A stretch of 64,000 nt of DNA, from assembly GCF_055900595.2 (NCBI RefSeq), contig NZ_CM148325.1; one strand, given 5' to 3'. Shown here one piece after another: positions 57,882 through 58,135 of the stretch. The position numbers and the translations under genes are program-made. How positions within the stretch are numbered: position 1 is the first letter of the stretch; each line of letters begins with the position of its first letter. The notes under the pieces were generated by a model that was not told the origin of the DNA, did not search any database, and saw only the letters and a program-made list of their open reading frames with translations.

Positions 57882-58034
57882 GTTCGTGTCTCCTGAAAAA
57901 AAATCGTTCTGAATAAGTGTAAACGCGCGATTGTACCATTACCAATAGCGCTTTTACTATGTTGTGACCTCGGTTCCGGGAAACAAACCTGGCCAGACAT
58001 TGTTACACAACACTCCGGGTAATGCATTCCAATA

Positions 58035-58050
58035 CTGTATATTCATTCAG
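58035..58050. promoter_or_regulatory. LexA (SOS) box in the ssb-uvrA divergent promoter region
   Basis: ctgtatattcattcag matches CTGT-N8-ACAG-like spacing (consensus CTGTATATATATACAG). Confidence 0.7.
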
Positions 58051-58135
58051 GTCAATTTGTGTCATAATTAACCGTTTGTGATCGCCGGTAGCACCATGCC
58101 ACCGGGCAAAAAAGCGTTTAATCCGGGAAAGGTGA

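Follow-up and report, generated by a model that had tools for sequence, protein, structure and literature searches.

A single LexA operator in the spacer of the divergent pair ssb–uvrA in an O157:H7-like Escherichia coli genome

Genes and strain background of the ssb–uvrA locus

The window analysed here is a 64,000-nucleotide stretch of contig NZ_CM148325.1 (RefSeq assembly GCF_055900595.2). Within it, two divergent genes are separated by a non-coding spacer of 254 bp (57882–58135), which matches exactly the interval given by an earlier sequence-only reading of this DNA. The ssb gene (57345–57881, minus strand) encodes a single-stranded-DNA-binding protein of 178 aa and starts at 57881–57879, and the uvrA gene (58136–60958, plus strand) encodes the excinuclease ABC subunit A of 940 aa with its ATG at 58136. 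Both names, ssb (ssb1) and uvrA, are those that RefSeq uses for K-12 MG1655 and for an O157:H7 record with 100% identity. This annotation and the open reading frames on opposite strands agree with the earlier identification of the pair as divergent ssb and uvrA. In the RefSeq records, the genes yjcB, pdeC, soxS and soxR lie past ssb, and yjbR, yjbQ and aphA lie past uvrA.

Our megablast comparison with 5,426 complete E. coli genomes finds the spacer in 5,425 of them, with at least 99% identity in 5,410 records and 100% identity in O157:H7 strains. Relative to K-12 MG1655, the sole difference in the spacer is one extra A in a homopolymer A-run at 57896, and the 110 bp spanning the LexA box and the uvrA promoter are identical; the window thus carries the K-12 sequence across the LexA box and both promoter cores. 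UvrA is 100% identical to its K-12 counterpart, and SSB differs from K-12 SSB by the substitution G125S only. Given these near-identities of spacer and proteins, the locus is therefore the classical E. coli ssb–uvrA region. Compared with the K-12 uvrA/ssb SOS box, this is the same locus with no substantive difference, in a strain background that is O157:H7-like here. Sancar et al. (1982) is reportedly a source on the K-12 SOS box, and this work and that of Brandsma in 1983 are said to have demonstrated LexA binding in vitro and in vivo on a K-12 sequence identical to the site here; a summary of such work is given in PMC9505508. The sources for the K-12 box, in the form in which PMC9505508 cites them, are Brandsma et al. 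1983 (Nature 305:243), Brandsma et al. 1985 (NAR 13:5095) and Fernandez de Henestrosa et al. 2000. The sequence-only reading had regarded the arrangement as known biology, and rightly so: the spacer is near-identical to that of K-12, and the operator has been described since the 1980s.

The two differences from K-12 lie outside the operator. Codon 125 of ssb (57507–57509) specifies S here and G in K-12, at a position within the glycine-rich linker. The A-run (57889–57896), which adjoins the Shine–Dalgarno sequence (ribosome binding site) of ssb, is 8 nt long here and 7 nt in K-12; on the ssb strand it appears as a T-run preceding AGGAG and represents a homopolymer length polymorphism. Spacers of 253 bp between ssb and uvrA occur in several E. 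coli lineages.

Several other elements were identified elsewhere in the window by Rfam. The Hfq-binding sRNA sraL/RyjA (53941–54080, plus strand; 157 bits) abuts the 3' end of soxR and corresponds to the K-12 annotation ryjA. The enterobacterial sRNA STnc630 (7299–7464, minus strand) is matched over its full length (182 bits), and the selenocysteine insertion element SECIS_2 (33474–33528, plus strand; 87 bits) presumably lies inside fdhF, judging from its map position. In addition, naRNA4, a REP/BIME-like nucleoid-associated RNA, is present in three copies (13151–13227, plus strand; 35997–36067, minus strand; 46615–46686, minus strand; 77–99 bits). Between aphA and tyrB, the O157:H7 record (L002) contains a 360-bp hypothetical gene (11113–11472 of that record), as against a 204-bp yjbS in K-12 (L001, 810–1013). 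This discrepancy may reflect a difference in annotation or in sequence, either at the window's end or just beyond it.

The LexA operator and the candidate promoters around it

The sequence-only reading had placed a LexA box between the divergent genes, and the string it quoted, ctgtatattcattcag, occurs once in the window, at 58035–58050, 153 nt from the ssb ATG and 85 nt from the uvrA ATG. It forms the 16-mer core (CTGTATATTCATTCAG) of the LexA operator (SOS box), the 20-mer TACTGTATATTCATTCAGGT at 58033–58052, which is assigned to neither strand and is identified by matrix score, conservation and literature. The scoring was performed with a symmetrised position weight matrix (PWM) built from 24 further LexA boxes of E. 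coli, an informal set rather than a database collection, from which the uvrA/ssb box was omitted (leave-one-out). With 20.45 bits, the box is the best match of the 64-kb window, 7.8 bits above the runner-up (12.65 bits), and lies between the lowest and the highest of the 24 training boxes (12.8–27.5 bits). By comparison, the mean best score of 200 Markov-1 random windows is 12.2 bits, and 0.005 matches at or above the score of the site are expected per window. The LexA motif scan that had been suggested as a check on the box is thereby passed with the top match of the window. The CTG-N10-CAG palindrome of E. coli-type LexA operators is present with both arms intact, with five mismatches in 20 positions to TACTG(TA)5CAGTA, and the site is well beyond chance.

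It might be argued that the 16-mer is a chance CTG-N10-CAG in AT-rich promoter DNA without a regulatory role. The loose palindrome by itself would allow this, as CTGT-N8-ACAG with at most one mismatch gives 20 matches in the 64-kb window against 17.0 expected, so that the pattern alone is not specific, and a search of the window for the perfect 20-mer consensus with at most three mismatches gives no match because the box carries five. However, the PWM score sets the box clearly apart, and the site that was studied by experiment in K-12 has this same sequence; the conservation of the box, described below, also speaks against this explanation. The second-best PWM match in the window, AATTGTTGAATTAAACAGTC (11973–11992), scores close to the best site of a random window and is therefore probably a chance match.

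From the same PWM table, the heterology index (HI) of the box is 6.4–7.3, and the published values are 6.98 (PMC9505508) and 6.23 (PMC11002266). The operator, described as a single SOS box in PMC9505508, is thus of medium strength (HI ~7), as compared with the HI of 2–5 of tightly repressed SOS genes (PMC11002266). An HI of about 7 is consistent with an appreciable basal level of expression for the two genes, which serve as repair/replication housekeeping genes. All five E. coli lineages that were sampled keep the 16-mer core intact, one of them with a spacer that is 91% identical.

A MAFFT alignment of 56 distinct spacers from loci with adjacent genes (Enterobacterales/Tolumonas), in which column identity denotes identity to the window, reveals an uneven footprint. 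The whole spacer has a mean column identity of 0.57, as compared with 0.89 for the LexA 20-mer (58033–58052) and 0.98 for CATAAT (58063–58068), and the block TTTGTGTCATAATT is nearly invariant. Among the non-coding blocks of these spacers, the box and the extended -10 beside it are conserved best. On the ssb side, conservation is also found for TGnTAsAAT (reverse complement of 57930–57938; 0.84) and TTTAsACT (reverse complement of 57915–57922; about 0.9), and the segment 57960–58020 has a column identity of 0.39.

A strict scan of 57700–58300 for sigma-70 promoters and terminators returned no sites, after which a relaxed sigma-70 scan that rewards an extended -10 was used; the hexamers given here are accordingly consensus-based candidates, and we infer their exact positions and the transcription start sites that they would imply. 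The best plus-strand match of the relaxed scan is a putative uvrA promoter (58040–58068), with a candidate -35 TATTCA (58040–58045), a 17-nt spacer and an extended -10 TGtCATAAT (58060–58068). This putative -35 would lie within the LexA box, and an overlap of the LexA box with the uvrA -35 is known from the literature (PMC9505508).

On the minus strand, the relaxed scan proposes a distal ssb promoter candidate, P1 (58026–58055), in which -35 TTGACC (58055–58050) and -10 TGGAAT (58031–58026) are separated by 18 nt that the LexA box occupies. P1 matches the consensus at 9 of 12 positions, and its -10 is non-canonical. The P1 and uvrA candidates overlap almost completely and stand back to back, so that one box would sit both inside the putative -35 of uvrA and inside the putative spacer of a P1 that is weak and limited to close relatives: its hexamers, with a column identity of 0.57, are kept only in Escherichia, Citrobacter, Enterobacter, Lelliottia and similar genera. 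Within E. coli, a 50-bp core is 95–99% identical to the window in 744 of 5,426 records, and the sampled changes include C to T at 58053. In strain AVS0533, this variant turns the P1 -35 from TTGACC into TTAACC and leaves the LexA core intact.

Closer to ssb, the relaxed scan alone points to a middle candidate (P2?; 57999–58027, minus strand) composed of ATGCAT, a 17-nt spacer and TGtAACAAT (-10 AACAAT, 58004–57999). It falls largely in the poorly conserved segment mentioned above, and we propose it with low confidence. A proximal region (57915–57959, minus strand), with an extended -10 TGgTACAAT (57938–57930) followed by TTTACACT (57922–57915), is a candidate for constitutive transcription of ssb; it is conserved across Enterobacterales and has no LexA box nearby. 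It is followed by the ssb Shine–Dalgarno sequence AGGAG (57891–57895, minus strand), which can be read directly in the sequence and has a column identity of 0.94. According to Brandsma 1985, as reported in PMC9505508, ssb has three promoters, LexA can repress the most distal one only, and the box lies ~170 nt from the coding region. The relaxed-scan candidates match this three-promoter description, and the proximal candidate fits the two constitutive promoters of the literature (PMC9505508), as far as consensus matches can tell.

RNA structure adds nothing to this picture. An Rfam scan at gathering thresholds found no RNA family in the ssb–uvrA spacer, and folding against shuffled controls revealed no excess structure in the uvrA leader (z = 0.16) or in the ssb P1 leader (z = -0.58). 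Small inverted repeats in the spacer were considered as leader structures and excluded, as the leaders fold no better than shuffled sequences. The small direct and inverted repeats, which are short and lie in poorly conserved columns except for the LexA palindrome, were taken as chance.

A further question is whether the region might be controlled mainly by ArcA, bound at a site that overlaps the uvrA -10, with LexA in a secondary role. An ArcA site is drawn in the spacer in the legend of Figure 1 of PMC9505508, and repression of uvrA by ArcA is attributed to Ogasawara et al. 2005 in the citing text of PMC3798270. In our own reading of the sequence, GTTAATTATGACA (reverse complement of 58059–58071), which belongs to a highly conserved block, resembles ArcA half-sites. 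However, the conservation of 58059–58071 is fully explained by the extended -10 of the uvrA promoter, uvrA/ssb was not recovered by genome-wide ArcA ChIP-chip and ChIP-seq (PMC3798270), and any control by ArcA would come on top of that by LexA and not take its place. On the grounds of the ChIP results we set ArcA aside as main regulator, and we regard a leading role for it as very improbable.

Conservation of the box beside uvrA in Gammaproteobacteria

To place the operator in a wider context, species-representative genomes were scanned for the UvrA N-terminus MDKIE[V/I/M]RGARTHN in codon-degenerate form, which gave at least 120 gammaproteobacterial uvrA loci, an arbitrary sample confined to species whose UvrA fits that start. 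Each locus was oriented on uvrA, ssb was located by tblastn, and the upstream DNA was scored, with a box defined as at least 14 bits within 300 bp of uvrA. Among the matches listed, a box is found upstream of uvrA in all 57 Enterobacterales-type loci (median 83 nt to the ATG), in all 14 loci of Vibrionales (63–76 nt) and in all three of Aeromonadales (40–48 nt), as well as in 6 of 41 loci of Alteromonadales sensu lato (23–161 nt). The retention of the box in every listed Enterobacterales and Vibrionales locus, while the flanking spacer diverges, together with its PWM score, in effect refutes a chance occurrence, to which we leave next to no probability.

The spacing within the uvrA promoter region is conserved as well. 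In 53 of the 57 Enterobacterales loci listed, the gap between the box and the extended -10 (TGTGyCATAAT) is 5 nt (43 loci), 6 nt (one locus) or 7 nt (nine loci). With this near-fixed gap of 5–7 nt, the operator and the uvrA -10 therefore appear to form one unit.

Adjacency of ssb is more restricted. An ssb gene adjacent and divergent to uvrA, with a spacer of 193–533 bp, was found in at least 55 loci, all from Enterobacterales apart from one Tolumonas MAG. In Vibrionaceae, among the matches listed, ssb lies ~2 kb away, with two genes in between, and the box stays beside uvrA; in eight of the nine Vibrionaceae loci in which ssb was located, no separate box belongs to it. The sole exception among these is Aliivibrio finisterrensis (L113), with a second box (17.2 bits) near ssb. 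Across all the listed loci with intervening genes, outside Enterobacterales, a box belonging to ssb is absent in 30 of 31. The operator is thus not tied to both genes across taxa, and goes with uvrA once ssb is separated, as in Vibrionaceae. The persistence of the box beside uvrA where ssb is apart, together with its fixed register with the uvrA -10, suggests that the operator is primarily an element of the uvrA promoter.

Several arrangements of the surveyed loci were recorded in passing. The genes between ssb and uvrA in Vibrio (L104, L055, L102, L011 and others) encode a LuxR-type regulator of 215 aa and a GalU-like protein of 290 aa and lie on the uvrA strand; the Vibrionaceae LexA box is placed between galU and uvrA. 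In Aliivibrio finisterrensis, just the galU-like gene lies between ssb and uvrA. Many Alteromonadales and Aeromonadales (L003, L018, L106, L122 and others) carry, immediately ahead of ssb and on its strand, a gene for a membrane protein of ~455 aa, which we take by eye to be MFS-like, and the divergent unit in those loci is transporter–ssb versus uvrA. Two MAGs labelled 'Hyphomicrobiales' (L025) and 'Proteobacteria' (L070) bear Enterobacterales-type uvrA upstream regions, and the box and spacing of the former are identical to those of Acerihabitans arboris (L010). By their sequences, both are probably mis-binned or contaminating contigs.

These comparisons bear on a stricter interpretation, in which the box is in practice an operator of uvrA only, its tie to ssb is a chance effect of the genes being neighbours, and SSB protein is not under SOS regulation to any meaningful degree. 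The course of the box in Vibrionaceae and the lack of a box at nearly all separated ssb genes favour it, as do the conservation of the P1 hexamers only among close relatives of E. coli and the E. coli substitution at 58053, which weakens the P1 -35. Its weighing against LexA control of both genes depends further on expression data.

Probable LexA control of uvrA and ssb

Published measurements of ssb have conflicted over four decades. Early radioimmunoassays, one fusion and three microarray studies, in the summary that PMC9505508 gives of the older work, did not detect ssb induction, which is what an operator serving uvrA only would predict. By contrast, RT-qPCR in the same study gave a rise of ssb of ~7-fold after gamma irradiation and ~18-fold after UV, and the induction of both ssb and uvrA was lost in lexA3 (PMC9505508). 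Overexpression of ssb in lexA(Def) was reported as 520-fold (PMC9505508), a figure that is hard to square with a single weak extra promoter and suggests that the RT-qPCR values are noisy. By digital PCR, basal ssb expression did not differ between wild type and lexA3, which again suits a uvrA-only operator; uvrA was ~30% lower in lexA3 (PMC9505508).

In a ciprofloxacin time course of E. coli, uvrA mRNA rose with a log2 fold change of 2.5–3.2 and UvrA protein increased, and ssb mRNA rose later than uvrA, with a log2 fold change of 0.8–1.8, without a significant change in SSB protein (PMC11002266). In Salmonella treated with nalidixic acid, uvrA was induced 11.2-fold and ssb 9.6-fold, and ssb was placed in a class with LexA-independent uninduced expression/heterogeneity (PMC8072944). 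The steady level of SSB protein is in line with the uvrA-only interpretation. Against it stand the LexA-dependent induction of ssb mRNA by UV and gamma irradiation, the elevated ssb of lexA(Def), the rise after ciprofloxacin and the induction in Salmonella. The comparative data favour this interpretation and the mRNA data contradict it, and on balance we consider its strong form, in which the regulation of ssb has no physiological weight, unlikely, with perhaps one chance in a few.

We therefore return to LexA control of both genes. Very probably, a single medium-affinity LexA operator (58033–58052) governs uvrA directly and ssb via P1 alone. The gene identities, the quality, rarity and conservation of the motif, its fixed distance from the uvrA -10 and its association with uvrA where ssb lies apart, all observed here, underlie the proposal, and the LexA dependence, the three-promoter architecture and the overlap with the -35 come from the literature (PMC9505508). 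A LexA dimer bound to the operator would cover the -35 of uvrA and block RNA polymerase, a steric detail that we infer, and the same dimer would occupy the -35/-10 spacer of ssb P1, which stands back to back with the uvrA promoter. Upon DNA damage, RecA–ssDNA filaments would trigger self-cleavage of LexA, and both promoters would be released. The uvrA gene would then respond directly and several-fold, and ssb would gain one promoter on top of two proximal, box-free ones whose constitutive expression is already high. For ssb, the expected outcome is a modest rise of mRNA with little change in SSB protein. The shared SOS control suggested in the sequence-only reading stands insofar as LexA-dependent induction of both genes is documented in the literature; the sharing is, however, asymmetric, as ssb would be reached through its distal promoter only.

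The operator resembles known systems to different extents. The ssb/uvrA locus of Salmonella enterica (PMC8072944) is orthologous, in another genus, and likewise divergent with one shared box (HI 6.99) and with both genes induced by nalidixic acid. The recA, sulA and uvrB genes have single-operator SOS promoters in which LexA binds a CTG-N10-CAG box over the -35 or the -10 and represses by occlusion. By comparison, one operator here would serve two overlapping, back-to-back promoters, and ssb also has unregulated promoters. The uvrA/ssb operator is nevertheless ordinary and already described, being among the first SOS operators known in the 1980s, and the discovery value of the locus is small, as the window holds the K-12 sequence essentially unchanged.

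The added value, a modest one, is comparative. Over the 120 gammaproteobacterial matches listed, the box appears to belong to the uvrA promoter and not to act as a symmetric element shared by both genes, an asymmetry that agrees with the long difficulty in showing ssb induction. This suggests that 'shared SOS control' means strong control of uvrA and a weak control of ssb that varies with lineage. What looks mildly new is that the operator tracks uvrA across Gammaproteobacteria, with the LexA-controlled ssb promoter apparently confined to close relatives of E. coli. We tentatively raise the possibility, which we rate below even, that LexA control of ssb is a lineage-restricted add-on, in which P1 (TTGACC-N18-TGGAAT) arose around an ancestral uvrA operator in Enterobacteriaceae near E. 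coli. If so, ssb would not be SOS-inducible in groups such as Erwiniaceae, Pectobacteriaceae and Vibrionaceae. As P1 would overlap the uvrA promoter completely, the two would compete for RNA polymerase once LexA leaves, and in E. coli the firing of uvrA and of ssb P1 would be mutually exclusive on any one DNA molecule.
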